Source: an uncultured Alphaproteobacteria bacterium (GTDB lineage Bacteria; Pseudomonadota; Alphaproteobacteria; Acetobacterales; Acetobacteraceae). From it: a stretch of 64,000 bases of DNA. Shown here one piece after another: positions 1 to 16,335 of the stretch; position 1 is the first letter of the stretch, and each line of letters opens with the position of its first letter. The position numbers and the translations under genes were made by a program. The notes below the pieces were generated by a model. The model saw only the letters and a list, made by a program, of their open reading frames with translations, made no database searches and was not told the DNA's origin. Where the stretch lies: contig CAWEVI010000007.1 of NCBI GenBank assembly GCA_963812475.1, positions 2,693 through 66,692 on the forward strand, in the 5' to 3' direction.

Positions 1-201
1 ATGCGCCGGATGCCCCGCGCCGCCGCCGAAGCGCTGTACCGCCGCGCGCGCCCCGTCGTCCTGGCGCAGGGCTGCATCATGGCGCTGGCGGGCTATGTGC
101 CCATCCTCAATCTGCTGATCCCCGTGATTGGCACCGCCGCCATGGTCCACGTGCTCGACCTCGCGCTGGCGGCGACGCCGGAAAATCGGCCCGCGTCATG
201 A
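1..201 (+). CDS. 3-prime end of a membrane protein gene that begins upstream of the window (EI24/CysZ-like, tentative)
   Basis: Frame is open from base 1 to the stop at 199-201. The hydrophobic tail ILNLLIPVIGTAAMVHVL resembles C-termini of EI24/CysZ-type proteins. Family call is from memory only. Confidence 0.35.
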   Translation: MRRMPRAAAEALYRRARPVVLAQGCIMALAGYVPILNLLIPVIGTAAMVHVLDLALAATPENRPAS

Positions 202-316
202 CCCATGCGGATCGTTGTGGATAACCGCCGGCACCCGGTTGTTTCATCGCCGCCGCCCGTGTTAGGCCGACCGTACCGTCACGACTCCCGACATCAGCCA
301 GCCGAGCGAGGAGCCC

Positions 317-982
317 GTGTTCAAACGCCGCAAGCCTGACGAACCGCAGGTCGACGAAGCGGGCGCCCCGTTGCCCGCCGGCCTGTCATATCCCGACCAG
401 GGGGACCACTCCGATCAACCGAGTGCCCCGAACAGACCGATCGACAACGGTCTGGGCGTGCCTCCCTTCCGTCCCGCCCCGCCGCAGGAGGTGCAAACGA
501 TGTCCCGGCCACCCTTCACCACCGCTCCAGCGCCGCAAGCCGCCCCACAGCCGGGACCGCGCCCCGGACTGCCACCGGTCCGCGCCCCGTCGCGCGATCC
601 GGCCGAGCGCCGCACGCTGGTCGTCGGCCGCGGCATCAGCGTACAGGGCACCGTGCAGGATGCCGAACGCCTGGTGGTCGAAGGAACTGTCGAAGCCACC
701 ATGATCCACGCCACCGAACTGGCCATCTCGCCGGGCGGCGTCTTCAAGGGTGAGATCGAGGTCGAGGACGTGGAGATCGCCGGCACGATCGACGGCACCC
801 TCACCGCGCGCGGCAGCCTGATCGTGCGCGCAACCGGCAAGGTGCTGGGCACCGCCCGCTGCCGGCGCCTTCAGGTCGAGGACGGCGGCCAGATCACCGG
901 TCGCATGGAGATGCTGACCGACCAGACCCAAGCCCAGGCGCGGACCGAACCGACCCGACCGGCGACCGAACCGGCGGCCTGA
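317..982 (+). CDS. Bactofilin family cytoskeletal protein with a Pro-rich N-terminal extension
   Basis: 221-aa ORF with a GTG start. The C-terminal ~120 aa show the bactofilin (DUF583) beta-helix pattern: GISVQGTVQDAERLVVEGTVEATMIHATELAISPGGVFKGEIEVEDVEIAGTIDGTLTARGSLIVRATGKVLG. The first ~95 aa are proline-rich low complexity. Confidence 0.8.
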   Translation: MFKRRKPDEPQVDEAGAPLPAGLSYPDQGDHSDQPSAPNRPIDNGLGVPPFRPAPPQEVQTMSRPPFTTAPAPQAAPQPGPRPGLPPVRAPSRDPAERRTLVVGRGISVQGTVQDAERLVVEGTVEATMIHATELAISPGGVFKGEIEVEDVEIAGTIDGTLTARGSLIVRATGKVLGTARCRRLQVEDGGQITGRMEMLTDQTQAQARTEPTRPATEPAA

Positions 983-1074
983 CGCCACCGCCCGAGTGCG
1001 GGCGGTCTTGGCGCAGATCAATGCGCGCCGTCACCGAGGGCTTAGCCTGAGGCATGACCGGTGGTGGGTGATGC

Positions 1075-1236
1075 ATGCGCATCTACAAGGCGATCAATCG
1101 AGTTCCGGGCGGCCTGATGGTCGTGCCACTGTTCATCGGCATGGAGCTCAGCACCTTCTTCCCGACCCTGCTGAAGATCGGCGGCTTCACCGAAGCGCTG
1201 ACCAGCGTCGGCTACCCCACGATCCTCAGCACGTAG
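1075..1236 (+). pseudogene. kdgT: N-terminal stub (53 codons) of a 2-keto-3-deoxygluconate permease gene
   Basis: ATG at 1075, TAG at 1234-1236. The translation MRIYKAINRVPGGLMVVPLFIGMELSTFFPTLLKIGGFTEALTSVGYPTILST parallels the KdgT N-terminus (M-IK--IE-IPGGMMLVPLFLGA--TF-PG----G-FT). Full KdgT is ~320 aa, and nothing further is recognisable downstream. Confidence 0.5.
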
Positions 1237-1309
1237 CTGTACTTGACCACGGCTCCCGGGTCGCCGGTAATCGAGTGGGACCGCGCGGTCCAGGAGCAGG
1301 AGACACACC

Positions 1310-2443
1310 ATGCCGACCGTCCATCCGCAGCTAAAGAAGGCTCGCGATCTTATGCCACTGATCGCCGCGGCCGCGGATGAAAACGACGATATCCGAAAAC
1401 TCACCAGGCCAGTCGTTGAAGCCCTGATCGATGGCGGGTTCTTCACCATGTTGAAGACCAAATCCGTCGGCGGAATGGAGCTGAAGCCCTCGCTCTTCGC
1501 CCAGGTGACCGAGGCGATCGCCACCGTGGATGGATCGACCGGGTGGGTGGTGTGCCAAAGCAACGGCTGCTCGACCACCAGCGCGTATCTCGATCCGCAC
1601 ATCGCCCAGGAGATTTTCGGCAGACCGGACGGGATCGTCGCCTGGGGACCGCCCGGTTCGCCCTACGAGGCGACACCGGTCGAAGGCGGCTACCGCATCA
1701 CCGGCAAATGGCGCTTCATGAGCGGCAGTCAGAATGCGACCTGGCTTGGTGCCCATCTGCGGGTTGCGGGCACCAAGGAGACCAAGACGTTCCTCTATCC
1801 GAAATCGAGCGCCACGTTCCACGATATCTGGCACACGCTGGGCCTGCGCGGCACGGCCAGCAATGAATATTCCGTCGACAATCTGTTCATTCCGCACGAG
1901 CGCGCCATCTTTCGCGACGATCCGCGCGACCGGCGTTCCGACAGCCCGCTGTATCGTTTCACCAGCAACCAGCTTTATTCGATCGGGTTCGGCGGCGTCG
2001 CGCTGGGTATCGCCCGGGGAACGATGGACGCGTTTATGGACCTGCCGCGGGAAAAGACCCGCCGCGGCGCGGGCAAACCGATGGTGGAGAACAACGTCGT
2101 CCAATCGCACGTTGCGCAGTCCGAGGCGCGGTGGCGCTCCGCACGCTATTTCCTTCACGCTGCGGCGGACGAGGCGTTGGAAACCATCGAGGAATGTGGC
2201 GCGATGGAACTGGATCAGCGCACCCGCCTGCGCCTCGCTTCCACCTGGGCCATTCAGTCGTCACGCGAGATCGTCAACACGCTGTTTCACGACTGCGGCT
2301 CGATGTCGGTGTTCGAGGAGAATCCGTTCGAACGCCGCCTGCGCGACATCGACACGGTCGCACAACAGGGCCAGGGGCGGATACTGCACTACGAGACGGT
2401 CGGTCAGGTGATGCTTGGTCTGGCGCCGGAGAACATCTTCTGA
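1310..2443 (+). CDS. Acyl-CoA dehydrogenase-fold flavoprotein (type-2 ACAD / flavin-dependent monooxygenase family)
   Basis: 377-aa ORF. It has the N-terminal helical domain, a middle beta-domain (GYRITGKWRFMSGSQNATW) and a C-terminal helical domain, as in DszC/HpaH-like ACAD-fold enzymes. Confidence 0.75.
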   Translation: MPTVHPQLKKARDLMPLIAAAADENDDIRKLTRPVVEALIDGGFFTMLKTKSVGGMELKPSLFAQVTEAIATVDGSTGWVVCQSNGCSTTSAYLDPHIAQEIFGRPDGIVAWGPPGSPYEATPVEGGYRITGKWRFMSGSQNATWLGAHLRVAGTKETKTFLYPKSSATFHDIWHTLGLRGTASNEYSVDNLFIPHERAIFRDDPRDRRSDSPLYRFTSNQLYSIGFGGVALGIARGTMDAFMDLPREKTRRGAGKPMVENNVVQSHVAQSEARWRSARYFLHAAADEALETIEECGAMELDQRTRLRLASTWAIQSSREIVNTLFHDCGSMSVFEENPFERRLRDIDTVAQQGQGRILHYETVGQVMLGLAPENIF

Positions 2444-2483
2444 AGCTGGCTAGCAGCTGACGAAAGGTTGTGCCAGTAAACAA

Positions 2484-2802
2484 GGAAAATGAAACCGCAA
2501 AACACGCAGAACACGCAAATGGATACTGGCGAAGAGAGCGTAACCTCCTTTCCAGACGAATCATCGGCTGCGCCCTAACCGTTATCCACGCACTGGGAAC
2601 TGCTTCCTCGATACCGGCTTCCAGTCGGCGCACCCGACCACGTCTTTCTATGCCGCGAGCCATTACGACGTGGATGCCGGGCCCACGGCCTTCGCCGGGG
2701 CATGCTTCGCCCGGCATTACGACATGAGTCGAACTCAGCAGAAATTGGTATAAGGCACCGCTACCCTTTGCGTGTTCTGCGTGTTTTGCGGTTCCATCTT
2801 CC
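2484..2802. repeat. 319-bp element bounded by ~40-bp imperfect terminal inverted repeats (MITE-like, or a long-stem structured RNA)
   Basis: Left arm at 2484-2524 is GGAAAATGAAACCGCAAAACACGCAGAACACGCAAATGGATAC. The reverse complement of 2761-2802 is GGAAGATGGAACCGCAAAACACGCAGAACACGCAAAGGGTAG, with a 25-nt perfect core. No convincing coding frame lies inside. Confidence 0.6.
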
Positions 2803-2865
2803 TCCCGATCGCACAGACCAGCTGCGCGGAATCAGGGCAGTCGCGCACAGTCCCAATTTTATCGG

Positions 2866-3058
2866 CTACCGTCCCGCGGTCTGATAGGCCGCCAGGCACT
2901 CTGCACGGCTTCTCCATGCCCATCAGCAGCGGCCCGATAGTGCTTCCGCCACCGCCCAGGCTCGACGTGATATGCGCCGAGTGCAGCCCGGGCATCACCA
3001 GCACGTTGGCATCCGCGGTCAGCCGGCAGAACGGATACAGCGCGCGGATCGACGGCTC
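2866..3058 (-). pseudogene. maeB: Decayed duplicate of the 3-prime end of the NADP-malic enzyme gene
   Basis: The minus strand reads [51 protein letters not shown]. This parallels maeB residues encoded at 6707-6955 and is roughly 90 percent identical by hand alignment. There are net gaps of 9 nt, 1 nt (frame-breaking) and ~43 nt. The tail resumes as ..AYQTAGR-stop at 2866-2868. Confidence 0.8.
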
Positions 3059-3066
3059 GCCTGGAG

Positions 3067-4170
3067 CTAATCGGCCGCCGCCAAATCTTCCTCGACGAAA
3101 CGCATGAGTGCCTCGAGAAGAGCTTCGCGCGGATAAGCGTTCCGGGTCACGAACATCGAGGCGATGACGCTGTGCGTGCGATTGATCGGGACCGCGACGG
3201 CCCAGTGGTCGGCATTGAGATAGCCCACCAGAACGCTGCCTGGCACGACCTGGTCATAGAAGATCATCTGACTGTCGTTGCGCGCGTCGATGCGAGCCAG
3301 CTTGTCATAGCTCCCGGTAAGAACCGAAGAGATGACCTCCGGCCGCGGAAATGTGACGAGCGAATAATAGTGCAACTCGGGGGGAAGCGGGTTCCGCGCA
3401 AGCCACGCCTGGCGCGTCGCGGGCCGTAGGCTTGCCACGCCGCCGCCGTCGCCCGGGCCGCAGTTTGCGCCTGGAAAGTGCCGCAGCAGGTCGGCCTGGT
3501 ACTGCTCGGCGTCATTCGCGAGCGGCGACCCGCCAATCGCGCCGGCGGCGCTGACCACCGCAGCGACGCGGCTTCGTACCTCCGGATACGCGACCACAGC
3601 CTCGAGGATATCAGGGGCACCCTTCGAATAGCCGATGAGCACCAAACGCGGCGCACCCGCGTCGAACGGCATGGCCATGATCGCGTCGCGGATCTGGCGC
3701 GCGTTATTCTCCGAACTCGACAGCGCATCGACCTTCAGCACAAACGCGTCGTATCCGAACTGGCGCAAATGCTGCCCGGCAGTGCCGGGTGGATCCAGCC
3801 ACGGTTCGAAGCATTCGTAGCCAATACCTGGCACCACCGCCGCGACGAGGTGTCGCTTCGATGGACCGAGATCGACTTGTCTGTCAGTGCCGGCGGGCTC
3901 CGTGCCGACGCGGGTCAGTGCTTCCTCGCAGGGGCGGTAATCCGGCAGCGCGCGTCCGTGCGCTTCCAGCACGGCGCAATAGATTTCACGGAAGCGGCCA
4001 CGGTGGTCCTGCACGCCCATCCGGGCTGCAGGCACGAGAGCGAGCGGCGGCGTGTCGGTCGAATACGGCACCAGTGGCCGCGTCGCACATGCGCCGAGCG
4101 TGAGGCACGTCCCCGCGACCAGCGATATGATGGCTACATAAAATCTAGTGCCCGGCATCGCTGCCCGCAT
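3067..4170 (-). CDS. Lipoprotein alpha/beta hydrolase (lipase/esterase-like)
   Basis: Signal peptide with lipobox (ISLVAGTCLTLGAC). Nucleophile elbow G-Y-S-K-G sits in LVLIGYSKGAPD, and there is a downstream ADHWAVAVP His motif. I chose the start at ATG 4170 (AAGGTG lies 8 nt upstream). ATG 4158 is an alternative. The track ORF extends to 4350 without support. Confidence 0.65.
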   Translation of the reverse strand: MRAAMPGTRFYVAIISLVAGTCLTLGACATRPLVPYSTDTPPLALVPAARMGVQDHRGRFREIYCAVLEAHGRALPDYRPCEEALTRVGTEPAGTDRQVDLGPSKRHLVAAVVPGIGYECFEPWLDPPGTAGQHLRQFGYDAFVLKVDALSSSENNARQIRDAIMAMPFDAGAPRLVLIGYSKGAPDILEAVVAYPEVRSRVAAVVSAAGAIGGSPLANDAEQYQADLLRHFPGANCGPGDGGGVASLRPATRQAWLARNPLPPELHYYSLVTFPRPEVISSVLTGSYDKLARIDARNDSQMIFYDQVVPGSVLVGYLNADHWAVAVPINRTHSVIASMFVTRNAYPREALLEALMRFVEEDLAAAD

Positions 4171-5380
4171 TCCCGACACCTTGTCCACGCCGATCGAGGT
4201 ACGGCTCCCAGCGGAGAAATTCCACGTTTTCGAGGCTCTGGGGCCGCGTCGCGAAGAACAGGACGGCGCGCAGACCGTCGGTATAATAGTGCGCGCCGTG
4301 CAGGGTATCCCGAGGCTGTGTATCGGAGGCCTCGCCGACGCCGGTGACAAAACCGATGCGGGTCAGACCACCTGAATACATCATGTCCTGGACCAACAGA
4401 TTTCTTGCTTCATCCACATCTTCGTCCAGGACGATATCGCTGTTGCCCGGGGACGCGAAGCGCCCGCCGACCGGCCGGCCAGCCTGCACAAGATAAACCG
4501 GTTGGTCCTGGAAGCTGACCGGTGCGAGCCACGCGCGTATCCAGTTGGACGGCGCGCCCGCCTGTGCCTGCTTGTGCAGCACGAAATCAGGCGGGCGGCC
4601 GAAAACCTGTTGAACCATGTCCTCCGCTTGCGCGGAGCGCCGATAGTCACGGCGCACCATCGCGCTCCCGATCGCGGCAATGTCACCGACGAACACGGCA
4701 TTCAGCGGATCAGCGTGCATCGTTCCGCCTGCTTCTGCCGCACAGCACGGCAGCTGCTCGATTGCAACGCGGAGTGCGGCGAGGTCCGTGTAGTTCACGG
4801 CATGCGCACCGGAATATTTGAAGAGCGCCGGGTCGTCGCCGGGGGCATCATCGGGTACAGGTAGGAACAGCGTGAAGGGAATCAGCATCTGCCGGCCGAG
4901 CAGATCGACGTTCAGAAGTCTTGTCCGGCGTTCGGGATTGATGAAGAGGATTCCCGCACGTGTTTCCCCCGCGGCGATCGGATTCTTGAACCCGAGCCTG
5001 TCGAAGTGGTCGTCGATCCGTGCATTCGTGTCGCCGCCAAGCAGCGTGTGCAGCGACCACGCGACTTCGAGCGGCGAGTAGTAGTCAGGGTCGGTGCCGG
5101 AGCGCAGCAGCCACAACCGTCGCGCGGTCCGGTTCTCGACCTCTATCCAGACGGGCTGTACTGCGGTCCTGTCGAGTTCGCCGCCGAGCATGCGCCGCGC
5201 GTCCATGGCGCTGAGCACTGCCGCGTTTATGCGTACGTCGCTCCGCATGTCGGTCACGGCGCGGCGGCGCAGCGCGGCGTCGCTGACGTCCTCGGGAGCC
5301 CGCCAGGTCGCGCAACTGACTATGGCCAGTAGCAAGCAGATCCTGAACGCGTCGAGCAGACGAGGCGGCAACGAATTCAT
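4145..5380 (-). CDS. LssY C-terminal-domain lipoprotein (divergent paralog)
   Basis: Lipobox LLLAIVSC. The N-terminal domain shares VQPVWIEVENR with the upstream paralog. Also shared are the LPCC motif, ADPLNAVFVG and the C-terminal YYTDG motif. Its ATG overlaps the upstream stop (ATGA at 5377-5380). Confidence 0.65.
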   Translation of the reverse strand: MNSLPPRLLDAFRICLLLAIVSCATWRAPEDVSDAALRRRAVTDMRSDVRINAAVLSAMDARRMLGGELDRTAVQPVWIEVENRTARRLWLLRSGTDPDYYSPLEVAWSLHTLLGGDTNARIDDHFDRLGFKNPIAAGETRAGILFINPERRTRLLNVDLLGRQMLIPFTLFLPVPDDAPGDDPALFKYSGAHAVNYTDLAALRVAIEQLPCCAAEAGGTMHADPLNAVFVGDIAAIGSAMVRRDYRRSAQAEDMVQQVFGRPPDFVLHKQAQAGAPSNWIRAWLAPVSFQDQPVYLVQAGRPVGGRFASPGNSDIVLDEDVDEARNLLVQDMMYSGGLTRIGFVTGVGEASDTQPRDTLHGAHYYTDGLRAVLFFATRPQSLENVEFLRWEPYLDRRGQGVGNAGSDAGH

Positions 5381-6678
5381 CGCGCTATTCCCGGAGTCGC
5401 CTCCTTGCGCGTCTCGATCGTCCCCCAGTCGAACAGCTCGATCTCGGTGATCGGCGTTGGTCTGCGGTCAAATACCAGCACGACGCGAAATCCGTCGGTA
5501 TAGTACGGATCGGTGGTGAGGTTCTCGCGTGCAGCGTTCGGCGGTGCTGCGCCGACCCCGTTCACGAGCCCCGACTTCGTGAGGTTTTGCGAATAGACCA
5601 TGTCCTCGCTCAGCGCCGCGCGCGCCGTGTCCAAATCGGGATCGATCTTGTGCGTCGTGAACGTCGGTGAGTGGATGGTGAGACGAGAGCCGATATCCCG
5701 GCTGACCTGGCCCACCCAAACCCGCTTGTCATGGTAGCGGATCGGGCTCAGCCAGAGCCGCAGGTGATTGCGCTGGTGGATGTTGTCACGGGCCTTCTGC
5801 AGCGCGAGGTCCTGGGGACGGCCGAACAGGTAGAGATCACTCACCGGCGCATAGGGATAGCGGTCGCGCGACAGCGCAGCGGTCATCATCCGCCAGATCG
5901 AGCCCGTCCACTTCTCCTCGGTTGGATGCCAACCCCGCCGGACCAAAGCAGGGAAGGCATCCTCGAGGCCGCCAACGATCACCAGATTGATCGGATCGGC
6001 GTTCTTCGTGCCATTTTTGTTGGTCGCACAGCATGGCAGGGCCTCCAGCGCCGCGCGAAAGGCATCGTCATCCGTGTAGTTCACGATCTTCTCGGGCGGA
6101 TAGATCTCGCGCTGGAACGCTTCGCTCACCTTATAGTCACCCCGAAAGCCAGGCACGACCGCGAGGATCGAGAATGTCCGCGCGCGCTCGCTTGCGACAA
6201 AGTCGAGTTGCACGAGCTTCACGCCCTCGTCCAGGTTTGTCAGTACGAACCCCAACGTCGTCGATTCCGGCGGGACGGGGTTGTGGAACGCAAGCTGCCG
6301 GAAGCGCCGGTCGATCGCAGCCCGCTGCTGGCTCGAGCTCTCCGGTGACAGGGCTTCGGCTGCTTCCGATGCGGGAAAGAAATTCGGATCCAGACCCGGC
6401 GACAACAGGAAATAGCCCTGCCGGTCACGGTTCTCGACCTCGATCCACACGGGCTGGATTCCCTGCTTCGCGAGCGCCATGCCGTACACCGCCACGCTCT
6501 CGTCGGCGGACAGCACCGCCGTCGACACCCGCAGCGTGCCGTCGGTTCGCGTCACGGCCCTGCTTTTGTAGTCGGGCTCCGTTGTGGGCTGTGCCGACAT
6601 CACAGGCGCACAGCCACCAAAAGTGCCAGCGACGAGAGCGATTGCGAGCGCCCGCATCGCCATGCGGGTCCATTTCAT
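5377..6678 (-). CDS. LssY C-terminal-domain lipoprotein
   Basis: Signal peptide plus lipobox (LVAGTFGGC). As I recall the LssY_C (PF14067) signature, these match it: ADPINLVIVG, RRGW, PVSDLYLFGRPQDLALQK, RNHLRLW and THKIDPDLDTAR. It starts 28 nt after the maeB stop. Confidence 0.7.
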   Translation of the reverse strand: MKWTRMAMRALAIALVAGTFGGCAPVMSAQPTTEPDYKSRAVTRTDGTLRVSTAVLSADESVAVYGMALAKQGIQPVWIEVENRDRQGYFLLSPGLDPNFFPASEAAEALSPESSSQQRAAIDRRFRQLAFHNPVPPESTTLGFVLTNLDEGVKLVQLDFVASERARTFSILAVVPGFRGDYKVSEAFQREIYPPEKIVNYTDDDAFRAALEALPCCATNKNGTKNADPINLVIVGGLEDAFPALVRRGWHPTEEKWTGSIWRMMTAALSRDRYPYAPVSDLYLFGRPQDLALQKARDNIHQRNHLRLWLSPIRYHDKRVWVGQVSRDIGSRLTIHSPTFTTHKIDPDLDTARAALSEDMVYSQNLTKSGLVNGVGAAPPNAARENLTTDPYYTDGFRVVLVFDRRPTPITEIELFDWGTIETRKEATPGIAR

Positions 6679-6706
6679 TCGCTCATCCCCGCGAACTGAC
6701 GCCGGA

Positions 6707-8992
6707 TCAGCGCGCCGCCGCGGTCTGGTACGCCGCCAGGCACGCCAGATCGACGATCTGGCTGACCGAAGCGTCCATCGGCATGATCTGCACGGGCTTC
6801 TCCATGCCCATCAGCAGCGGCCCGATGATGCCACCGCCACCCAACCTGCGCGCCAGGCTCGACGTGATATGGGCCGAGTGCAGCCCCGGCATCACCAGTA
6901 CATTCGCATCCGCGGTCAGCCGGCAGAACGGATACAGCGCGCGAATGGACGGCTCCAACGCGACATCCGGGCTCATCTCGCCGTCATATTCGAAATCGAC
7001 ATTGCGCCGATCGAGGATCGCCACCGCATCGCGCATCGGCGCATTGGCCGCATGCAGCGGGTCGCCGAACGTGGCATGCGACAGCAGCGCGACGCGCGGC
7101 TCGTGGCCGAGATGCCGCGCAGCCCTAGCCGCACCGATCGCGATCTCCGCCGCCTGCTCCGCATTGGGTCGGAAATGCATCAGTGTGTCGGCGATGAAGA
7201 TGGTCCGACCGCGCATGCCCAGCACCAGCGTAAGCCCGAACGCGATGCCCCCCGCGGCCGGCTCGATCGCATGGCTGATGTCGTCCAGACACACCGCGGC
7301 CGAACGGGTGAGCCCGGTCACCATCGCATCGGCATCACCGGTCGCCACCATGCAGGCGGCAAAGACGTTGCGGTCCTGGTTCACCATCCGCTGGCAGTCG
7401 CGATGCAGGAACCCCCGGCGCTGCATACGGCCATACAGGAAGTCGACGTATTTTGCATTGGCGCCGGACAGGCGCGCGTTGTGGATCTCGATGCCCTCCA
7501 CGATGCCGAGACCGAGGCTCGCCATCGTCGCCTGCACCCGATCCTCGCGCCCGATCAGCACCGGTCTGCCATAGCCGGCATTGCGGTAGGCGACGGCGGC
7601 CCGCACCACCTTCTCCTCCTCGCCCTCGGCGAACACCACGCGGCGCGGATCGGTCCGCACGCTCTCCATGATCGCGTCGAGCGCGCCGGCGGTGGAATCG
7701 AGCCGCCCCGACAGGTCTCGCGCATAGCGGCGCAGATCGACCAGCGGCCTGCGCGCGACGCCGCTGTCCATCGCCGCGCGTGCCACCGCCGGCGGCACCC
7801 AGGAGATCAGTCGCGGATCGAACGCGTTCGGGATGATGTACTCCGGCCCGAACGTCAGCCGCCGCCCGGTCGAGGCGGTGTGCACCTCGTCCGGCACATC
7901 CTCGCGCGCAAGCTTGGCCAGCGCCTCGGCCGCGGCGATCTTCATTGCCTCGTTGATCGTGCTGGCGCGCACATCCAGCGCGCCGCGGAAGATGTAGGGA
8001 AAGCCCAGAACGTTGTTGACCTGATTGGGATAGTCGCTGCGGCCAGTCGCTATGATCGCATGTGGGCTGGCTTCCCGCGCCTCTTCCGGCGTGATCTCCG
8101 GGTCGGGGTTCGCCATCGCGAAGATGATCGGCTTGTCCGCCATGCGGCGGACCATCTCCTTGGTCACCGCGCCTTTGACCGACAGGCCGAACACCACATC
8201 GGCGCCGTCCAGCGCATCGGTCAGCGTGCGCGCCCTGGTCGCAGTGGCGTGGGCTGACTTCCACTGGTTCATGCCGTCGGTGCGGCCCTGGTAGATCACA
8301 CCCCGCGTGTCGCACAGCACCACGTGTTCCGGCCGCATGCCCATCGCCTTCAGCAGTTCGGCGCAGGCGATGCCGGCTGAACCGGCGCCGTTCACCACCA
8401 GCTTCGTGTCGCGCAACTCGCGCCCGGTCAGGTGACACGCGTTGATGAGTCCCGCCGCCGCGACGATCGCGGTGCCGTGCTGGTCGTCGTGGAATACCGG
8501 GATGTCCATCAGTTCGCGCAGCCGCTGCTCGATCACGAAGCATTCCGGCGCCTTGATGTCCTCCAGATTAATGCCGCCGAAGCCGGCCAGGAAGCGCACG
8601 GCGTTGACCACGTCATCGACGTTCTCCGAGTCGATCTCCAGGTCGATGCCGTCGATGTCGGCGAACCGCTTGAACAGCGCGATCTTGCCTTCCATCACCG
8701 GCTTCGACGCGATTGCGCCGAGATTGCCGAGGCCCAGCACGGCGGTCCCGTTGGACACCACCGCGACCATGTTGCCCTTGGCCGTGTAGTCGTAGGCGAG
8801 CGAGGCATCGCGCTGGATGTGCAGGCAGGGTTCGGCGACGCCAGGCGAATACGCGAGCGACAGGTCGCGCGCGGTGGTGATCGGCTTGCTGATGCGCGTC
8901 TCGAGCTTGCCCGGACGACCCGACGCGTGCAGCGCCAGGGCTTCTTCGGCCGAGATGCGTGCGGTGCGCGTATCGATGATACCGTCGGCCAT
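6707..8992 (-). CDS. maeB: NADP-dependent malic enzyme (malic enzyme domain fused to a PTA-like domain)
   Basis: Start chosen at [22 protein letters not shown] (ATG 8992), giving 761 aa. Motifs include [29 protein letters not shown] and GAGSAGIA, followed by a phosphate-acetyltransferase-like C-terminal half. The track ORF extension to 9205 is unsupported. Confidence 0.92.
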
Positions 8993-9101
8993 CGTGGTTC
9001 CCCTGGTCGTTTCCCGTCGCGGCTGTATGCCATCATGGAGGGGGACCGCGAAGGAGGAAAGCGGACCGCGCTTCGCAGTGTTGGCGGCCTGAGGTACACC
9101 A

Positions 9102-12100
9102 ATGCCGATGGCCTCAGTCCCCCGATCAGCCGGCGCAACGCCTGCCATGGCGCAATGGTTCGCCGCCAAGGAAGCACACCCGGATGCGCTGGTGTTCTTC
9201 CGCATGGGCGATTTTTACGAGCTGTTCTTCTCGGACGCCGAGGCTGCCGCAGCCGCCCTCGACATCGCGCTGACCCAGAGGGGCGAACATAACGGCAGTC
9301 CGGTGCCGATGTGCGGCGTGCCACAGCATGCGGCCGAGGCCTATCTCGCGCGCCTGATCCGCCGCGGCTTCCGCGTGGCGGTGGCTGAACAGATGGAGGA
9401 CCCCAAGGCGCGCACCAGCAAGGCGCCGATCCGGCGCGAGGTGGTGCGCCTTATCACGCCTGGCACGATCACCGAGGAAGCCCTGCTGGAAGCCGGCCGA
9501 GCCAATTTGTTGCTGGCGCTGGCGCTGGATGGGCGGGTGGGCGTCGGCGCGGCGTGGCTCGATGTTTCCACCGGCCTGTTCGAGACGATGGCGCTTGCCC
9601 AGGCCGATCTTCCCAGCCTGCTCGGCCGGCTTGAACCGGCGGAGATTCTCGCTGCGGCAACCTTGCCTCTTGGCGACTGGGCGGGCAGGCGCGCGCCCGA
9701 TGTCGTGCCATCGCCGCCGTTGGTGGCCCGTCGGCGGCTGGCCGAGGCATTCGGCGTCGCCAGCGTTGACGCGTTCGGCAGCTTCGCCGATGCCGAGGCC
9801 ATCGCTGCGGTTATGGCGGTGGACTATGTCCGTGCCACCCAGGCGGGCACACTGCCGCGCCTGGCGCACCCCGCGCCGCAGGGTGCCGCCGGGCTGCTGT
9901 CGATGGATGCGGCAACGCGCTCCAGTTTGGAAATCCACCGTGCGCGGGACGGCGGAACGTTGCACACGCTGCTCGGCACCGTGCAGCGAACGCTCAGCCC
10001 TGCGGGCGCGCGTATGCTGGCGGGCTGGCTGTCCGCGCCGCTCACCGACACCCCGGCGATTGCGGCACGCCAGGATGCATGGTCCTGGCTGTTGGCCGAG
10101 CACGCCGCCGCCGAGCGGCTGCGGGCTGCTATGCGGTCCGCGCCTGACATCGCTCGCGCTCTGGCACGGCTGTCGGTCAATCGCGGCGGACCGCGCGACC
10201 TCGCTGCGCTGCGCCACGGGCTGGCGGCCGCGCAGGCTGCGGCGATGGCGCTCAGTGCGTCCGGCGCCCACCTGCACCCACACGCACAGCCACCCGCCGC
10301 CACCGCACAGTCATGCGCGCCCAACGCACACACACAGTCACACGCCCCGCACGCACACGCCCCGTACGCACAGTCCCGCGCGCCCAGCGCGGACGCACAG
10401 TCACACGCCCCGCACGCACACGCGCAGTCACACGTCCCGCACTCGAACGTCATGGCCGGGCCTGACCCGGCCATCCCCACGACCGCGAATGCCGCAACAG
10501 ATGGCCGGGTCAAGCCCGGCCATGACGAAGCATGTGGGCCCGGCGATGACGGAGCACGTGGGCCCGGCCACGACGGAGCGGTTGCGCCAGGCCATGACGG
10601 AGCACTTGGGCCAAGGCCCGATGGAGTGCTTGCGGGAGAATTGTCCGTCGCGCTGCCTCCAGCGCTGCGGACCGCGTCCACCGCCCTCCACGTCGATCCG
10701 TCACTGGAGCACCGCCTGGCCGACGCGCTGGCCGACCCGGCGCCGCATCGCCTGGACGACGGCAACGCCATCCGGGCCGGTTTCGACGCCGAACTCGACG
10801 CCGAACGCGCCCTGCGCGACGATAGCCGACGAGTGCTGGCAACGCTGCAACTCGACTACGCGCAGCGCTACGGCGTGGCCAGCCTGAAGATCCGCCACCA
10901 CGCCCAACTCGGCTACGTCATCGAAGCGCCTGCCGCCGTGGTGGAAAAGCTGCGCGAATTTCCCGAACTCACATTGCGCCAGGGCATGGCCAACGGCGCG
11001 CGCTTCACCACACCGGAACTCTCGGACCTCGACCGCCGCATCGCTGAGGCCGGTGAACGTGCCGCGGCACGCGAGCGCGCGGTGTTCGCCCAACTGGTGC
11101 AGGAGGCCCTGGCCCATGCCGATGCGCTCGCCGCCTGCGCCGATGCGCTGGCCTTCCTCGACGCCGTGCAGTCCGCCGCGAAGCTGGCCGAGTCCGGCAC
11201 GTGGTGCCGCCCCCAGGTAACCGATAACGACGAGTTCCTGGTGAAATCCGGCCGCCACCCGGTCGTGGAAGCGGCGCTGGCAGGACACGCGGCCTTCGTG
11301 CCCAATGACTGCGACCTGTCCGCGGAGCAGCGCGTCCTGTTGCTCACCGGCCCCAACATGGCGGGCAAATCGACCTTCCTCCGGCAGAACGCGCTGATCG
11401 TCGTGCTCGCCCAGGCCGGGCTGCCGGTTCCCGCGGAAGCCGCGTCCATCGGCGTGGTGGACCGGCTGTTCTCCCGCGTTGGCGCGGCGGACGATCTGGC
11501 GCGCGGCCGTTCCACCTTCATGGTGGAGATGACCGAGACCGCCGCGATCCTGCATCAGGCCGGCCCGCGCTCGCTGGTCGTGGTGGACGAGATCGGCCGC
11601 GGCACCGCGACGCTGGACGGCCTGGCGATCGCCTGGGCGGTGCTCGAGGCGCTGCACTCGGCAATCCGCTGCCGCACCATCTTCGCCACACACTTCCATG
11701 AGCTTGCCGAACTCGCGGACCGGTTGCCGCGTCTCAAGCCGCACACGATGCGGGTGAAGGAATGGAAGGGTACAGTGGTGTTCCTGCACGAAGTGGCCAC
11801 CGGTGCGGCGGGGCGCTCCTGGGGCGTGCACGTCGCGGAACTGGCCGGGGTGCCGGCGCCGGTGGTGCGACGGGCCGCGTCCTTGCTCGCGTCCTTGGAA
11901 AAGCACGGGGGCCCGCTGGGAGCGGCAGGCTCGCCGCTCACGGCATTGCCGCTCTTCGCCGCCGCGCCTTCCGCGGGGCAGGCAGAAGCCCCGTCTTCAC
12001 CGGATCCCGATCCACTCACCGAGGCGATCGCCGCCCTGGAACCGGATCGGCTCACCCCGCGCGACGCGCTGGACGCATTGTATCGCCTGAAAGCAATGTT

Positions 12101-12128
12101 GGCAGTTCCCGACGCGGCGGCGAACTAG
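9102..12128 (+). CDS. mutS: DNA mismatch repair protein MutS carrying a ~123-aa in-frame repeat insertion
   Basis: N-terminal TPAMAQWFAAKEAHPDALVFFRMGDFYELFFSDA, Walker A GPNMAGKST, and DEIGRGT. It is 1008 aa, against ~880-915 aa as I recall for relatives. It is divergent from maeB. Confidence 0.92.
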   Translation: MPMASVPRSAGATPAMAQWFAAKEAHPDALVFFRMGDFYELFFSDAEAAAAALDIALTQRGEHNGSPVPMCGVPQHAAEAYLARLIRRGFRVAVAEQMEDPKARTSKAPIRREVVRLITPGTITEEALLEAGRANLLLALALDGRVGVGAAWLDVSTGLFETMALAQADLPSLLGRLEPAEILAAATLPLGDWAGRRAPDVVPSPPLVARRRLAEAFGVASVDAFGSFADAEAIAAVMAVDYVRATQAGTLPRLAHPAPQGAAGLLSMDAATRSSLEIHRARDGGTLHTLLGTVQRTLSPAGARMLAGWLSAPLTDTPAIAARQDAWSWLLAEHAAAERLRAAMRSAPDIARALARLSVNRGGPRDLAALRHGLAAAQAAAMALSASGAHLHPHAQPPAATAQSCAPNAHTQSHAPHAHAPYAQSRAPSADAQSHAPHAHAQSHVPHSNVMAGPDPAIPTTANAATDGRVKPGHDEACGPGDDGARGPGHDGAVAPGHDGALGPRPDGVLAGELSVALPPALRTASTALHVDPSLEHRLADALADPAPHRLDDGNAIRAGFDAELDAERALRDDSRRVLATLQLDYAQRYGVASLKIRHHAQLGYVIEAPAAVVEKLREFPELTLRQGMANGARFTTPELSDLDRRIAEAGERAAARERAVFAQLVQEALAHADALAACADALAFLDAVQSAAKLAESGTWCRPQVTDNDEFLVKSGRHPVVEAALAGHAAFVPNDCDLSAEQRVLLLTGPNMAGKSTFLRQNALIVVLAQAGLPVPAEAASIGVVDRLFSRVGAADDLARGRSTFMVEMTETAAILHQAGPRSLVVVDEIGRGTATLDGLAIAWAVLEALHSAIRCRTIFATHFHELAELADRLPRLKPHTMRVKEWKGTVVFLHEVATGAAGRSWGVHVAELAGVPAPVVRRAASLLASLEKHGGPLGAAGSPLTALPLFAAAPSAGQAEAPSSPDPDPLTEAIAALEPDRLTPRDALDALYRLKAMLAVPDAAAN
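10263..10632 (+). repeat. Composite repeat block inside mutS (His/Ala/Pro-coding direct repeats, two REP palindromes, 24-nt tandem repeats)
   Basis: An exact 28-nt direct repeat CACAGTCACACGCCCCGCACGCACACGC occurs at 10333-10360 and 10396-10423, a 63-nt period. Palindromes ATGGCCGGG-N5-CCCGGCCAT lie at 10452-10474 and 10501-10523. Five progressively degenerate 24-nt units span 10513-10632. All are in frame. Confidence 0.85.
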
Positions 12129-12142
12129 TACCGATTGCGCGG

Positions 12143-14950
12143 ATGCTGACCCCATTGCCCCTGCCGAAGGCTCCCGAGGCCGCCGCCTCCGTCCTCACCG
12201 ACGCGCTTGCCGACCTCGCCGAAGACGGCCCGGTCTCCCGCGAAGCAGCTTTGGGGGTGTTCCGACGCCATCAGGCGCGAATGCAGCAGCATGTGCAGCA
12301 CGCTTTCGAACAGGACCAGATCAGCGGGCTGCAGGCCGCGCGTCTGCTCGGCAAGCTGACCGACGGGCTGATCTCCTCGCTGTACGACCATGCCATCGCC
12401 GACACCGGGCTCGGTCGGCCCGAGCATCTGTCGGTTGCGGCCACCGGCGGTTACGGCCGCGGCGTGCTGGCGCCGTTCAGCGACATCGACCTGCTGTTCC
12501 TGACCGCGCACGAGCCCACGCCGCAGACGCTTCAGGTCGTCGAATACATGCTGTATTTCCTCTGGGATCTCGGCGTGAAGGTGGGCCACGCCACGCGCTC
12601 GATCGAGGATTGCCTCGTCGAAGGCGCCAAGGACACCACGATCCGCACCGCACTGCTCGATGCGCGACACATCGCCGGCGACGCTCCACTGTTCGCGGAA
12701 TTCCACACGCGTTTCCGCGCCGCCTGCAAGGTAGCCGGCGCCGCCGACTATATCGCCGCCAAGCAGGCTGAACGCGACATACGTCACCGCCGCTATGGCG
12801 ACAGCCCGTTCGTGGTCGAGCCGAATGTAAAGGAAGGCCGCGGTGGGCTGCGCGACCTCCAGACGCTGTACTGGATCGCACGCTACGTCTATGACACGCA
12901 GACCATGGGCGAACTCGCCGATGTCGGCGACGTGCTCACCGAAACCGAGGCGAAGCATGGCCGCCGCGCCTGGGAGTTCCTTTGGACCGTGCGGTTCCAT
13001 CTGCACTACGTCGCGGGCCGCGCCGAGGAGCGACTGACCTTCGACCTGCAGCCTGTCGTCGGCGCTCGCATGGGCTACACCCGCCACGGCCGCCAGGACG
13101 GCGTCGAACGTTTCATGCGTCACTATTTCCTGACCGCGCGCGAGATCTCCCGTCTGACCCGCATCCTCGAGCCGGCCATCCTGCGCGAGGCGCTCGGCCC
13201 GCCCGCGATCGCCGCCGAGACCGACAAGGCGCTGGTGCAGGCGGGGTTTGTGCTGGCGGAAGGCGCGCTGCTGCCGTTGCCGGGCCGCGACTTCGACAAA
13301 GAGCCGACCCAGATGCTGCGCATCCTGCAGGTGGCGCGCGACCGTAATCTGGAACTGCATCCGCTCGCCGTGCGGTCCTTGATCCAGAACGAGCGCCGTG
13401 CCGTGGAATTGCGCGGAAATCCAAAAGCGGCCGCGCTGTTCATGGACCTTATGTGCGGGCGCGAGCCGGACCATCACCGGGCCAGCCCGCATCCCGATGG
13501 CGCGCGATGGCTCTCGATAATGAATGAGACCGGCTTCCTGGGCCGCTTCATTCCCGACTGGGCGCGCATTGTCGGGCAGATGCAGTTCGACACGTATCAC
13601 GTGTTCACCGTGGACGAGCACACGATCGAGGCGGTGCGCGTGCTGAACATGATGGAGCGCGGCGAACTGGCGGAAATCGCGCCGGTCGCCAGCAGCCTGG
13701 TCGATCATCTGCAATCGCGCCGCGCGCTGTATCTGGCAATGCTGCTGCACGACATCGCCAAGGGCCGCGGCGGCGACCATTCGGAGCTAGGCGCGGAGGT
13801 TGCGCTGAAGGTCGGGCCGGCGCTGGGTCTCTCAGCCGAGGAAACCGAGACGGTATCGTGGCTGGTGCTGCACCACCTGCTGCTCTCGACGATTGCATTC
13901 AAGCGCGACATCGAGGATCCAAAGACCATTTTGGATGTCGCGGACACGATCCAGTCACCCGAGCGGCTGCGCCTGTTGCTGGTGCTGACGGTTGCCGACA
14001 TGCGCGCCGTATCGCCGAAGGTCTGGAACGGCTGGAAGGCGACGCTGCTGCGCGAACTGTATGCGCGGGTTGCCGAGGTGCTTGCTGGCGGCTTGTCCAC
14101 CACCGAGCGCGACGTGCGCGTGCAGCGCGCGAAGCAGGCCGCCGCCGCGCTGCTGTCGGACTGGTCGAGGCTGGACATCGAGCAGTTCACGTCACTTGGC
14201 TACCCCGGCTACTGGCTGTCGTTCGATCCGGAGACGCACGCGCGCCACGCCCGTCTGGTGCGCGACGCCGAGGCGCGCAAAGCGCCGCTGACGGTGGATA
14301 CCCAGCCGCTGCCGGCGCGCGCGGTGACCGAGGTCACCGTCTATTGCGCGGACCATGCCGGGCTGTTCAGCAAGATTTCCGGTGCGCTCGCGGTGGCGGG
14401 CGCTTCCATCGTCGATGCCCGCATCCACACGATGACCAATGGCATGGCGCTGGACACGTTCTGGGTGCAGGACGCCGCCGGCGGCGCATTCGACGCGCCG
14501 CACCGGCTGGCGCGACTTGCCGTGCTGATCGAGCAGGCACTGTCGGGAAGGCTGCGCATCGCAACGGAGATCCGCAAGATGTCCAAGGTGCTGCTGGGAC
14601 AGCGCATGCGCGCGATCCATGTCCCGCCACGCGTGGTGATCGACAACCATGCATCCAACACGCACACGGTTCTGGAAGTAAACGGTCGCGACCGGCCCGG
14701 CCTGCTGCACGACGTGACCGCAGCGATCAGCGAGCAGGGGCTGCAGATCGCATCGGCACATGTCACCACCTACGGCGTGCGCGCGGTGGACGTGTTCTAT
14801 GTAAAGGACGTATTCGGCCTGAAGGTAGAGAACGAGCGCAAGCTTGCTCTGCTGCGCGAGGCACTATTGAGCGCTTTGACAAATCCTGACGAGGTCGCGC
14901 CGCCTCAGGCGGTCCCGGCAAGGAAGGGTCGTCGCGCCGTTGCGGGTTAG
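12143..14950 (+). CDS. glnD: Bifunctional [protein-PII] uridylyltransferase / uridylyl-removing enzyme
   Basis: Start chosen at MLTPLPLPKAPE (ATG 12143), giving 935 aa. It has a nucleotidyltransferase motif (GGYGRGVLAPFSDIDLLFL), an HD domain (LLHDIAKG) and two C-terminal ACT domains. The track extension back to 11762 overlaps mutS and is rejected. Confidence 0.92.
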   Translation: MLTPLPLPKAPEAAASVLTDALADLAEDGPVSREAALGVFRRHQARMQQHVQHAFEQDQISGLQAARLLGKLTDGLISSLYDHAIADTGLGRPEHLSVAATGGYGRGVLAPFSDIDLLFLTAHEPTPQTLQVVEYMLYFLWDLGVKVGHATRSIEDCLVEGAKDTTIRTALLDARHIAGDAPLFAEFHTRFRAACKVAGAADYIAAKQAERDIRHRRYGDSPFVVEPNVKEGRGGLRDLQTLYWIARYVYDTQTMGELADVGDVLTETEAKHGRRAWEFLWTVRFHLHYVAGRAEERLTFDLQPVVGARMGYTRHGRQDGVERFMRHYFLTAREISRLTRILEPAILREALGPPAIAAETDKALVQAGFVLAEGALLPLPGRDFDKEPTQMLRILQVARDRNLELHPLAVRSLIQNERRAVELRGNPKAAALFMDLMCGREPDHHRASPHPDGARWLSIMNETGFLGRFIPDWARIVGQMQFDTYHVFTVDEHTIEAVRVLNMMERGELAEIAPVASSLVDHLQSRRALYLAMLLHDIAKGRGGDHSELGAEVALKVGPALGLSAEETETVSWLVLHHLLLSTIAFKRDIEDPKTILDVADTIQSPERLRLLLVLTVADMRAVSPKVWNGWKATLLRELYARVAEVLAGGLSTTERDVRVQRAKQAAAALLSDWSRLDIEQFTSLGYPGYWLSFDPETHARHARLVRDAEARKAPLTVDTQPLPARAVTEVTVYCADHAGLFSKISGALAVAGASIVDARIHTMTNGMALDTFWVQDAAGGAFDAPHRLARLAVLIEQALSGRLRIATEIRKMSKVLLGQRMRAIHVPPRVVIDNHASNTHTVLEVNGRDRPGLLHDVTAAISEQGLQIASAHVTTYGVRAVDVFYVKDVFGLKVENERKLALLREALLSALTNPDEVAPPQAVPARKGRRAVAG

Positions 14951-15093: not shown

Positions 15094-16335
15094 ATGAGAT
15101 GGGCTAAAGACAAGAGCATCTCGCCCTTGCGGAGTGCGTGGCGGCTGTTGCCGCCGCGCACGCGTAGGTATCTGTTCACGCGCGGTTGCGCCATGGTCGC
15201 GCCGGCCATCGCGCGTGAACCACCCCCCGCACGTGCAGGCCTCGCGATCGCCGGCGAACTCTCGGCCACAACCGGCCTCGGTGAAGGTGCCCGTGTCATG
15301 CTGCGGGCGCTGGCGATCCTTGGTGTGCGGAACTGGGAATTTGACGTTGGACCTGCGTGGCGGCCCACCGCTAAACCGGTATTGGCGGGTTTCCGTAGAT
15401 CGCCGAGCAGTGTTCCACTGGTTGTCCACGCCAACGCGCCAATGATGCCGGCTTCACTCATGAGGCTGCCGCGCTCCATGGTGCACGGACGCCGTATCAT
15501 AGGGTACTGGGCCTGGGAGCTATCCAGACTGCCGCCGGAGTGGGCGATAGGCGCATCCTTTGTTCATGAGGTATGGGTGCCGTCGCAGTTTACCGCCGAG
15601 GCGGTGGAACCGTTGCTGCCTGGCCGGGTCCGAGTGGTTCCCCACCCCGTCGCCGTTGCGCCACCGTCGCCATCGGCTCTCGATCGCAGTGCATTTGGAC
15701 TTCCCGATGATGCCGTGGTGGTGCTGGCTGTCCTCAACCTCGCTTCGTCGCTTGAACGCAAAAACCCCTACGCGGCGATCGCTGCATTCCGCGCTGCATT
15801 CGGCGATCGGCGCGACCGGCTGCTGGTGCTCAAGGTGGGTCACCCGACGCACTTTCCGTCAGAGTTCGCGCGTTTGGCGGAAGCGGCCGATGCGCCGAAC
15901 ATCCGTCTGGAGGCGCGCGACCTGCCCACTGCCGACAATCATGCCCTCTTCGCTGCGGCAGACATTGTTCTGTCGCTACATCGGGGCGAGGCATTCGGGC
16001 TCGTCCTGGCAGAGGCGATGTTGCTCGGCAAGCCAGTGATCGCGACGGGATGGTCCGGCAATCTGGAATACATGGACCAGGACAGCGCGGCATTGGTCGG
16101 CTATCGGCTGGTTGCGGCGCGCGATCGTCGCGGTACGTACGATGTTGCGCACGCAGTATGGGCCGATCCTGATCTGGCGGATGCCGTGGCGCATTTGCGC
16201 CGCCTGGCGGACGACGAAGTGGAGCGCAGAGCGCTAGGAGCCCGGGCCCTTGAGGCGGCGTGTCTGCGGCTCGGGCCGCGCCGATTGCTGGCTGCAATCG
16301 ATGCGCTTGGTTTGGCGCCTTGTCGTTGCGAGTAA
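15094..16335 (+). CDS. Glycosyltransferase family 4 (GT-B, group 1)
   Basis: The C-terminal E-x7-E region reads SLHRGEAFGLVLAEAMLLGKPVIATGWSGNLEYM. Start is at ATG 15094 (MRWAKD), and an earlier start at 14956 is possible. Confidence 0.7.
   Translation: MRWAKDKSISPLRSAWRLLPPRTRRYLFTRGCAMVAPAIAREPPPARAGLAIAGELSATTGLGEGARVMLRALAILGVRNWEFDVGPAWRPTAKPVLAGFRRSPSSVPLVVHANAPMMPASLMRLPRSMVHGRRIIGYWAWELSRLPPEWAIGASFVHEVWVPSQFTAEAVEPLLPGRVRVVPHPVAVAPPSPSALDRSAFGLPDDAVVVLAVLNLASSLERKNPYAAIAAFRAAFGDRRDRLLVLKVGHPTHFPSEFARLAEAADAPNIRLEARDLPTADNHALFAAADIVLSLHRGEAFGLVLAEAMLLGKPVIATGWSGNLEYMDQDSAALVGYRLVAARDRRGTYDVAHAVWADPDLADAVAHLRRLADDEVERRALGARALEAACLRLGPRRLLAAIDALGLAPCRCE

Follow-up and report, generated by a model that had tools for sequence, protein, structure and literature searches.

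Displacement of the original maeB 3′ end as the probable origin of a gene-tail remnant behind a three-gene cassette in uncultured Acetobacteraceae

The 64,000-nucleotide (nt) stretch analyzed here (the window; contig CAWEVI010000007.1 of the uncultured Acetobacteraceae assembly GCA_963812475.1) carries the malic enzyme gene maeB, a cassette of two putative LssY_C-domain lipoprotein genes and one esterase-like gene, and, behind the cassette, a damaged copy of the maeB 3′ end. This remnant (2866-3058) is likely to be the original maeB 3′ end, pushed downstream by one event in the ancestor of a small uncultured Acetobacteraceae clade; among the conceivable routes of integration a Campbell-type or homology-facilitated one is favored. 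The locus offers a clean natural case of cargo settling beside a housekeeping gene without a mobility enzyme. The features on which the argument rests are the following:

6707-8992, minus strand: functional maeB, NADP malic enzyme with a phosphotransacetylase (PTA)-like C-terminal domain, 761 amino acids (aa) (Pfam malic/Malic_M/PTA_PTB, NCBIfam PRK12861)
6679-6706, minus strand: 28-nt spacer from the maeB stop to the start of cassette gene 1 (open reading frame (ORF) coordinates)
5377-6678, minus strand: cassette gene 1, putative lipoprotein with LssY_C domain, 433 aa (Pfam PF14067, E 7e-53)
4145-5380, minus strand: cassette gene 2, putative lipoprotein with divergent LssY_C domain, 411 aa (weak match to Pfam PF14067, E 6e-11)
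3067-4170, minus strand: cassette gene 3, alpha/beta-hydrolase lipoprotein, 367 aa from the ATG at 4170 (PDB 5D8M)
6718-6955, minus strand: live maeB tail (copy F), the part repeated in the window (alignments; extent in relatives)
2866-3058, minus strand: maeB-tail remnant (copy R), a pseudogene fragment corresponding to maeB 6955-6707 with 9-, 1-, 43- and 3-nt deletions and its own TAG (alignments)

The maeB ORF extends to 9205, its homologues begin at 8992, and its stop codon is TGA (6707-6709). Positions 6718-6955 of the gene recur at 2874-3058 on the same (minus) strand with 93% identity over 185 aligned nt (13 mismatches). MAFFT, a repeat search and a local aligner all recovered this repeat where the sequence-only reading, an earlier inspection of the letters and ORFs, had placed it by hand, and resolved it into three co-linear blocks: 2956-3058 with 6853-6955 (103 nt, 93% identical), 2900-2953 with 6787-6841 (45+9 nt, 91% identical, with a 1-nt gap within a C run), and 2874-2899 with 6718-6743 (26 nt, 92% identical). 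The identity within the blocks therefore exceeds the approximately 90% given before; the gaps of 9, 1 and 43 nt had been recognized, a fourth of 3 nt near the end had been overlooked, and together they explain why 249 nt of maeB correspond to 193 nt of remnant. As had also been noted, the remnant retains a stop codon of its own (TAG, 2866-2868), and the order of maeB, 28-nt spacer, three genes and remnant stands, with a similar arrangement in two relatives (loci L081 and L094; see below). The remnant begins 8 nt past the stop of cassette gene 3 (TAG, 3067-3069), and its longest gap-free exact match to the live tail measures 38 nt. A chance origin of the repeat is excluded, because the repeat search found no second repeat of comparable size within 12 kb of the window and two independently assembled metagenomes (L081, L094) show a like remnant in the corresponding position.

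In a scan of one genome per species the nearest maeB genes were only 84-85% identical at the amino acid level, and the cassette was present in none of the 80 maeB loci. Closer loci were obtained from homologues of gene 1 and maeB via their contigs, and from one scan of metagenomes for a 30-mer of the repeat. The comparison of empty and occupied sites that the sequence-only reading had suggested yielded both (L084, L110, L085, L100 and L105 empty; L081, L094 and L082 occupied). At the empty sites, relatives with 83-85% maeB nucleotide identity have maeB facing a convergent kdgT directly: L084 (maeB 85% identical at the nucleotide level) reads maeB TAG-CGC-TCA, TCA being the kdgT stop, with a spacer of only 3 nt, and L110 has a 130-nt spacer with a hairpin. 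L085, L100 and L105 are likewise empty, with a bactofilin gene after maeB. Different cargo occupies the same junction in L108 and L109 (a 1015-aa Hint_2/glycosyltransferase gene) and on the P0271-bearing contig (a 213-aa ORF). The occupied loci, which come from soil and peat metagenomes, are L081 (94% nucleotide identity, co-linear with window 9062-3055), L094 (93%, co-linear with window 10254-3055) and L082 (89-90%), whose maeB proteins are 94-97% identical to that of the window. L082 deviates by two opposite-strand DUF1254/DUF1214 genes and a divergent fragment of a kdgT homologue between maeB and the cassette (fragment at 9624-9870, covering residues ~152-233 with 61-71% aa identity to the resident kdgT, and in the same orientation). 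Because empty and occupied alleles exist at the same site, the cassette represents an insertion, and the junction that received it varies within the group; indeed, the maeB/kdgT junction is a hotspot at which other lineages carry different cargo.

The cassette is present in one copy in all four occupied loci, and maeB and cassette have co-diverged by 4-12% since the event (window, L081, L094, L082). A maeB remnant is present in two of the three occupied relatives (L081, L094), each covering other parts of the tail. The sequences of L081 and L094 place them in the same event as the window, which is thus read as old and clade-wide, not private to this genome; L082 probably derives from it as well. 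The three-gene unit was also found in unrelated contexts in L106 and L107, in neither case beside maeB, which marks the cassette as a block that moves as a whole; its lower G+C content (see below) points the same way. Apparent frame shifts in maeB of L081 (7670-9954), gene 2 of L094 (4970-6200) and gene 3 of L082 (12509-13596) represent either pseudogenes or assembly errors.

These comparisons bear on the possibility that the remnant is a decayed second malic-enzyme paralogue which once lay downstream and had nothing to do with the arrival of the cassette. Many alphaproteobacteria carry two malic enzymes; nevertheless, this origin is essentially excluded, since the remnant is 93% identical in nucleotides to the neighboring gene and falls inside its clade, too close for old paralogues, and since a second copy was found at this place in 0 of about 110 related loci. 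The sequence-only reading had named an intact downstream second malic enzyme in relatives as the sign of simple paralogue decay, and no relative has a full-length one. In addition, the 5′ edge of the remnant is the same in L081 and L094, where it abuts the cassette flank, and no locus showed more of a second copy than the last ~390 nt of maeB.

The anatomy of the scar is best preserved in the relatives. Past the stop of gene 3, L081, L094 and L082 share an identical run of 33 nt (ending ..GCGCGGCGCAGGTTTGGCCCAAC), of which the window keeps a part:

3055-3066, minus strand: remainder of the 33-nt cassette 3′ flank (CTCCAGGCGAGC), first 12 nt only (complete in L081, L094 and L082)

No derivation of this flank from maeB was detectable. 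Directly past it, L081 and L094 continue with maeB sequence that starts ~386-400 nt before the stop, with the same left junction in both; homology becomes reliable ~386 nt ahead of the last base of the stop. Flank and maeB join at GGCC(C)A(A)C or right beside it (maeB has GGCCAC). The remnant extends from about -390 to -293 in L081, from about -390 to -237 in L094, and from -249 to the stop in the window. One ancestral remnant of ~390 nt, differently eroded in three lineages, would account for all three; in window coordinates the ancestral duplicated segment begins around 7092-7108 and ends with the stop at 6707. The motif GAGC occurs in the flank and in maeB just before 6955. As it sits both in the flank and at the window boundary, the window lineage appears to have lost ~170 nt between the two copies; this deletion would have removed the first ~150 nt of the remnant together with most of the flank, and would have been followed by the 9-, 1- and 43-nt deletions, the last of which lies between two copies of GTGC. 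The boundary at 3058 is accordingly taken as secondary from this alignment: the earlier statement that the remnant starts 8 nt past the last cassette gene is correct as a coordinate, not as the original edge of the duplication. The locus may serve as a natural example of scar ageing, in which three lineages keep different pieces of one ~390-nt gene tail and deletions occur at 4-nt repeats.

L082 contains no recognizable remnant, the match in the 70 nt past its flank not being significant. Beside the conserved kdgT stop (TCAGTCGTC) it reads ..GGCCGCGACGG, which resembles the end of the window remnant (..ACCGCGGGACGG), and L081 has GGTAG-TCG-TCAGTC beside kdgT compared to GGTAG-CGC-TCAGTC in L084. 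It is suggestive only that these motifs are vestiges of the native junction of maeB end and kdgT. Two other origins of the 33-nt flank were considered and rejected. If it were the tip of kdgT, the joint would be a tandem-duplication junction; only L082 reads so, by way of an atypical C-terminal extension, and kdgT of L081, L094 and L084 is without the flank. Derivation from maeB further upstream was based on a match of GGCCCAACG ~70 nt upstream that is no better than in shuffled sequences.

As to which of the two tails is original, the remnant ends with CGG TAG as does maeB of L084, L087 and the 760-aa relatives (sites without this cassette), whereas the live maeB of window, L081 and L094 ends with CGC TGA. 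After Tyr-Gln the remnant has four codons versus five (with an extra GCG) in all four live copies of the clade, and the first base past its stop is also of the ancestral type; the score of this ancestral-type end was reached by 0/300 shuffles. At 8 third-position sites all four live copies have a common state that the remnant lacks. The 5′ part of the live maeB adjoins mutS, as in distant relatives, and the remnant is located on the kdgT side. Based on its ancestral-type end and its position on the kdgT side, the remnant is probably the displaced original maeB tail.

The different tail ends are also a difficulty for a tandem duplication followed by loss, according to which the cassette would already have stood between maeB and kdgT, the stretch from ~390 nt inside maeB to past gene 3 would have been duplicated, and the second cassette would have been deleted. 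Tandem duplications are frequent, and the joint at which the flank is followed by maeB at -390 is a novel joint of the type that they generate. This course of events is still regarded as highly unlikely: the ends differ (TAG versus TGA, one codon shorter) with the remnant matching maeB at cassette-free sites, no trace of a second cassette copy was found at any locus, and a deletion could not have recreated the native-junction-like motifs beside kdgT in L081 and L082.

The remnants differ from each other by 9.7% and the genes by 3.2% over the same 93 columns, which is consistent with neutral evolution of the remnants. In the window, 11/13 of the differences between live tail and remnant are at third codon positions and synonymous; for the three remnants the count is 27/35. 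This excess was tried as proof of a foreign tail and rejected, since polarizing the changes puts most of them on the live-gene branch and the comparison of remnant with remnant gives 5/9. At the doublet 6798-6799 (remnant 2910-2911), AAG (Lys) replaces the CGG (Arg) of the relatives only in maeB and remnant of this genome; the patch is likely the result of a short gene conversion between the two. The remnant would thus have traded a short patch with the live gene at least once, an exchange by which the dating of the copies is blurred.

The history proposed for the displaced tail is as follows. Before the event, maeB and kdgT would have been convergent and nearly touching. An insert of three parts (a copy of the final ~390 nt of maeB, the cassette of three genes and the 33-nt flank) would then have entered ~390 nt before the maeB stop; in the ancestor it may also have held the two DUF1254/DUF1214 genes. 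By this means maeB would have been kept whole via the new tail and kdgT would have been kept whole behind the old one, which, being unselected, would have undergone lineage-specific decay. The route would combine one exchange within the tail homology with a single illegitimate joint, formed at the GGCC(C)A(A)C motif or adjacent to it, the donor being tail-bearing DNA of a close relative in which the cassette already stood beside a maeB tail. An intact gene, cargo and a displaced tail are the pattern expected of a single crossover with tail-bearing DNA or of a one-sided homology-facilitated event. The insertion scar proposed from the window alone is thereby upheld by the empty and occupied sites and altered in that the event would be old and clade-wide and the repeat originally ~390 nt long; for the proposed Campbell-type or homology-facilitated origin, the layout fits, separate tail lineages left no sign, and an illegitimate duplication fits the layout equally.

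Such a duplicative illegitimate insertion is possible, though less probable. The cargo would be joined at two microhomologies ~390 nt apart in the "wrong" order, and the resident tail would be copied twice, e.g. by template switching in replication or break repair, where a fork would depart from maeB at the stop, replicate the cargo and return to the gene 390 nt upstream; both tails would come from the same chromosome, and a tail-bearing donor would be unnecessary. A single event is enough, and the absence of a similarity step along maeB, a remnant neither nearer to nor further from the outgroups than the live tail, and a right joint at or next to the GGCC(C)A(A)C motif are all in accordance with it. 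The same holds for the left joint exactly at the maeB stop, where L082 keeps the native CGG TAG with foreign sequence immediately after, and for the occurrence of the cassette elsewhere in unrelated contexts, none of them beside maeB. On the other hand, the extra codon and third-position states shared by the live copies must then postdate the event and predate the split of the clade. The homologous route, i.e. Campbell-type integration or homology-facilitated illegitimate recombination (HFIR), is preferred over the duplicative insertion by a small margin, because the live tails have derived features in common that are missing from the remnant, because cargo beside maeB is common in the group and donors are thus plausible, and because one-sided events are reportedly far commoner: as quoted in PMC5361080, experiments yield events with two separate illegitimate joints much less often than events that pair one such joint with a homologous one.

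Several points weigh against displacement by the homologous route. It needs a donor with the cassette beside maeB, and no remnant-free one was found among the fetched loci; likewise, a mobility gene was found in none of the loci. Sliding-window identity among window, L081, L094 and L082 showed no similarity step along maeB or cassette; a recombination break along maeB was thus rejected as a candidate, and no point of homologous exchange was apparent. The remnant is no nearer to any outgroup than the live tail is. The microhomology at the joint is weak, and the first ~10 nt past it align poorly. The vestiges of the native junction are weak as well, their score being reached by 114/300 shuffles in L081 and 13/300 in L082. 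The third-position bias is non-diagnostic, since synonymous change in the live gene and the mutability of G+C at third positions suffice to explain it, and the frame shifts in L081 and L082 may be assembly errors. A single genome can mislead in such a case: the boundary visible in the window is secondary, and a third-position signal resembling foreign origin is non-diagnostic.

With respect to mobility features, Pfam and NCBIfam profiles revealed no integrase, recombinase, transposase or phage gene between maeB and kdgT (all window ORFs; extra blocks of L094 and L082), nor did the gene lists of L081, L082, L108 and L110 contain a mobility gene beside the site. No inverted repeats bracketing the cassette were detected by the repeat search, and the duplication of ~390 nt is not a target-site duplication of a few nucleotides; the locus does not have the properties of a transposon or insertion sequence.

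A close parallel is the cryptic prophage e14 in Escherichia coli icd, which leaves the C-terminal pseudogene icdC, recombination between the two giving a chimeric gene (according to the passage of PMC13626634 that cites Hill et al. 1989). In both cases the 3′ end of the live gene comes from the insert and the displaced original 3′ end lies beyond the insert, as a direct repeat; intact gene, insert and direct-orientation 3′ fragment are thus present here, and an integrase is not. In contrast to the prophage with its own site-specific recombination and SOS-induced excision, the insert here is ~4 kb of ordinary cargo without integrase, recombinase or phage gene, the repeat was originally ~390 nt long, and the displaced tail is now too damaged for a working gene. 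Furthermore, the same element was not found at the same site in unrelated hosts, the cassette occurring elsewhere without maeB and other cargo occupying this site. Because the site-specific machinery is absent, the locus is not a member of the e14/icd class.

HFIR has been used to explain "orphan" 3′ fragments in type VI secretion system effector/immunity loci and in Rhs and contact-dependent inhibition loci (as treated in PMC5361080, and in PMC3240628 for E. coli). A conserved upstream anchor, an illegitimate downstream joint and a displaced but retained resident 3′ part would be common to those loci and the present one. They differ in their variable toxin tips and immunity genes, their diversifying selection and their often stacked arrays, whereas here a single displacement affected a housekeeping tail, anchor gene and cargo are unrelated, and the tails of donor and recipient are indistinguishable. 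Insertions of the type formed by microhomology-mediated break-induced replication (MMBIR) or fork stalling and template switching (FoSTeS) are similar in that the insert is flanked by duplicated target and a short G+C-rich microhomology is present at the joint. MMBIR and FoSTeS are known mainly from eukaryotic and experimental systems; in the present locus nothing shows replication-based copying, and a weak candidate microhomology is found at one joint. The feature is a known kind of scar in a new instance, in an uncultured Acetobacteraceae, and involves no new mechanism.

A more general interpretation, considered rather unlikely, is that the maeB/kdgT junction is a recurrent integrase-free landing site in this group of Acetobacteraceae, which unrelated cargo could enter only if the maeB end is regenerated and at which displaced tails would trade patches with the live gene. 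The cargo would then comprise the LssY/esterase cassette, the Hint/glycosyltransferase gene, the DUF1254/1214 genes and an acyl-CoA-dehydrogenase block (see below), and the displaced tail left behind by an entry would differ in length from case to case (~390 nt in the present locus, perhaps ~15 nt in L108). If true, this would be a "gene-end swap" route of island gain by homologous recombination, fixed by decay of the displaced tail. In L108, of the Hint_2/glycosyltransferase lineage, ~15 nt resembling a maeB end (GCGGCGCAGCGGGTA) abut the kdgT stop (15600-15640, 12270-12290), and the live maeB ends differently (..AGGGGC TGA); an independent insertion at this point may have left these ~15 nt behind as a displaced tail of much smaller size.

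On the coding strand of the 28-nt spacer, a motif scan found no terminator-like or promoter-like motif, and in 2300-9400 no sigma-70-like promoter; Rfam gave no match in 1-12000. GGGGA is positioned 8 nt before the ATG downstream of the spacer, and homology to the upstream flank of the L082 cassette starts at 6704, within the spacer. Since the spacer is without terminator or promoter motif, co-transcription of the cassette with maeB is plausible in this genome. In L082 the cassette stands apart from maeB, with two opposite-strand genes between, and read-through from maeB is not required. Owing to the uninterrupted 38-nt match, recombination between live tail and remnant should still be possible. 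An exchange between the copies would, however, leave maeB ending in the frame-shifted sequence of the remnant; removal of the cassette would thus cost a damaged maeB, and the insertion would be effectively locked in.

The window contains intact versions of the three cassette genes, with a G+C content of 62-66% versus 66-72% in the flanking core genes. Homologues of gene 1 are 66-96% identical, the named ones including Acetobacteraceae, Azospirillum, Caballeronia, Burkholderia, Cupriavidus and Lysobacter; gene 2 is kept beside gene 1 in L081, L082, L094, L106 and L107. The product of gene 3, which had no match in the Pfam scan, is homologous to the metagenomic carboxylesterase MGS0156 (PDB 5D8M, E 2e-67, residues 27-364), and its homologues (74-86% identical) include those of Cupriavidus and Paraburkholderia. 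Taken together, the cassette proteins are 66-86% identical in Azospirillum, Cupriavidus, Paraburkholderia and others, and the three-gene module is highly conserved across Alpha- and Betaproteobacteria. An exact-protein look-up gave no match for the LssY protein of the window or for an Azospirillum homologue, and a literature search on "LssY" retrieved unrelated papers only. Two LssY_C lipoproteins combined with an esterase of the MGS0156 type, a family that includes polyester degraders, may be of separate interest.

The region between the remnant and the far end of the junction contains three further features:

1075-1254, plus strand: kdgT reduced to its first ~55-58 codons; at empty sites kdgT faces maeB (relatives)
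1310-2443, plus strand: gene with acyl-CoA-dehydrogenase fold, weak match to an HsaA-type oxygenase model (profile scans)
2442-2865, no strand: 424-nt segment of lower G+C content (56-58%) between the remnant and the next gene, present in the window only and in no fetched relative

In an annotation, 2866-3058 should appear as a pseudogene fragment of maeB, and the stub of kdgT (1075-1254) as a truncated gene. The gene with acyl-CoA-dehydrogenase fold is part of a second inserted block (window 1241-2865) that is common to L094; there the block is longer (7485-13010), containing in addition an alpha/beta hydrolase, a major facilitator superfamily (MFS) transporter and a further ~3.9 kb, and kdgT is almost complete. 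In the window the rest of kdgT would have been lost when this block was inserted or deleted. The 424-nt segment harbors a 40-nt inverted repeat (2483-2522 and 2764-2803, 93% complementary, 241 nt between the arms), of which no further copy was found in the window and no match in Rfam. Each of the two arms opens with AGGA..ATG, and the inward reading frame would code for M(K/E)PQNTQNTQ; in RNA form, the stretch folds far better than shuffled sequences (z = -7.2).

On the other side of maeB, the spacer between mutS and maeB is also variable among relatives: L081 has a 377-aa ORF there (6353-7486), L108 a block of a pyridoxal-phosphate-dependent decarboxylase and an Opp-type ATP-binding cassette transporter (1217-9901; also in L109), and L110 a DsbB and an MFS gene (6010-7830). 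Within mutS of the window (9102-12128), a stretch of ~390 nt (10254-10645) consists of 24-nt and 27/63-nt tandem repeats in frame, which encode low-complexity sequence rich in His/Ala/Pro/Gln and in Gly/Pro/Asp; it is unaligned with mutS of L081 and L082, where this part is shorter or called as two genes.

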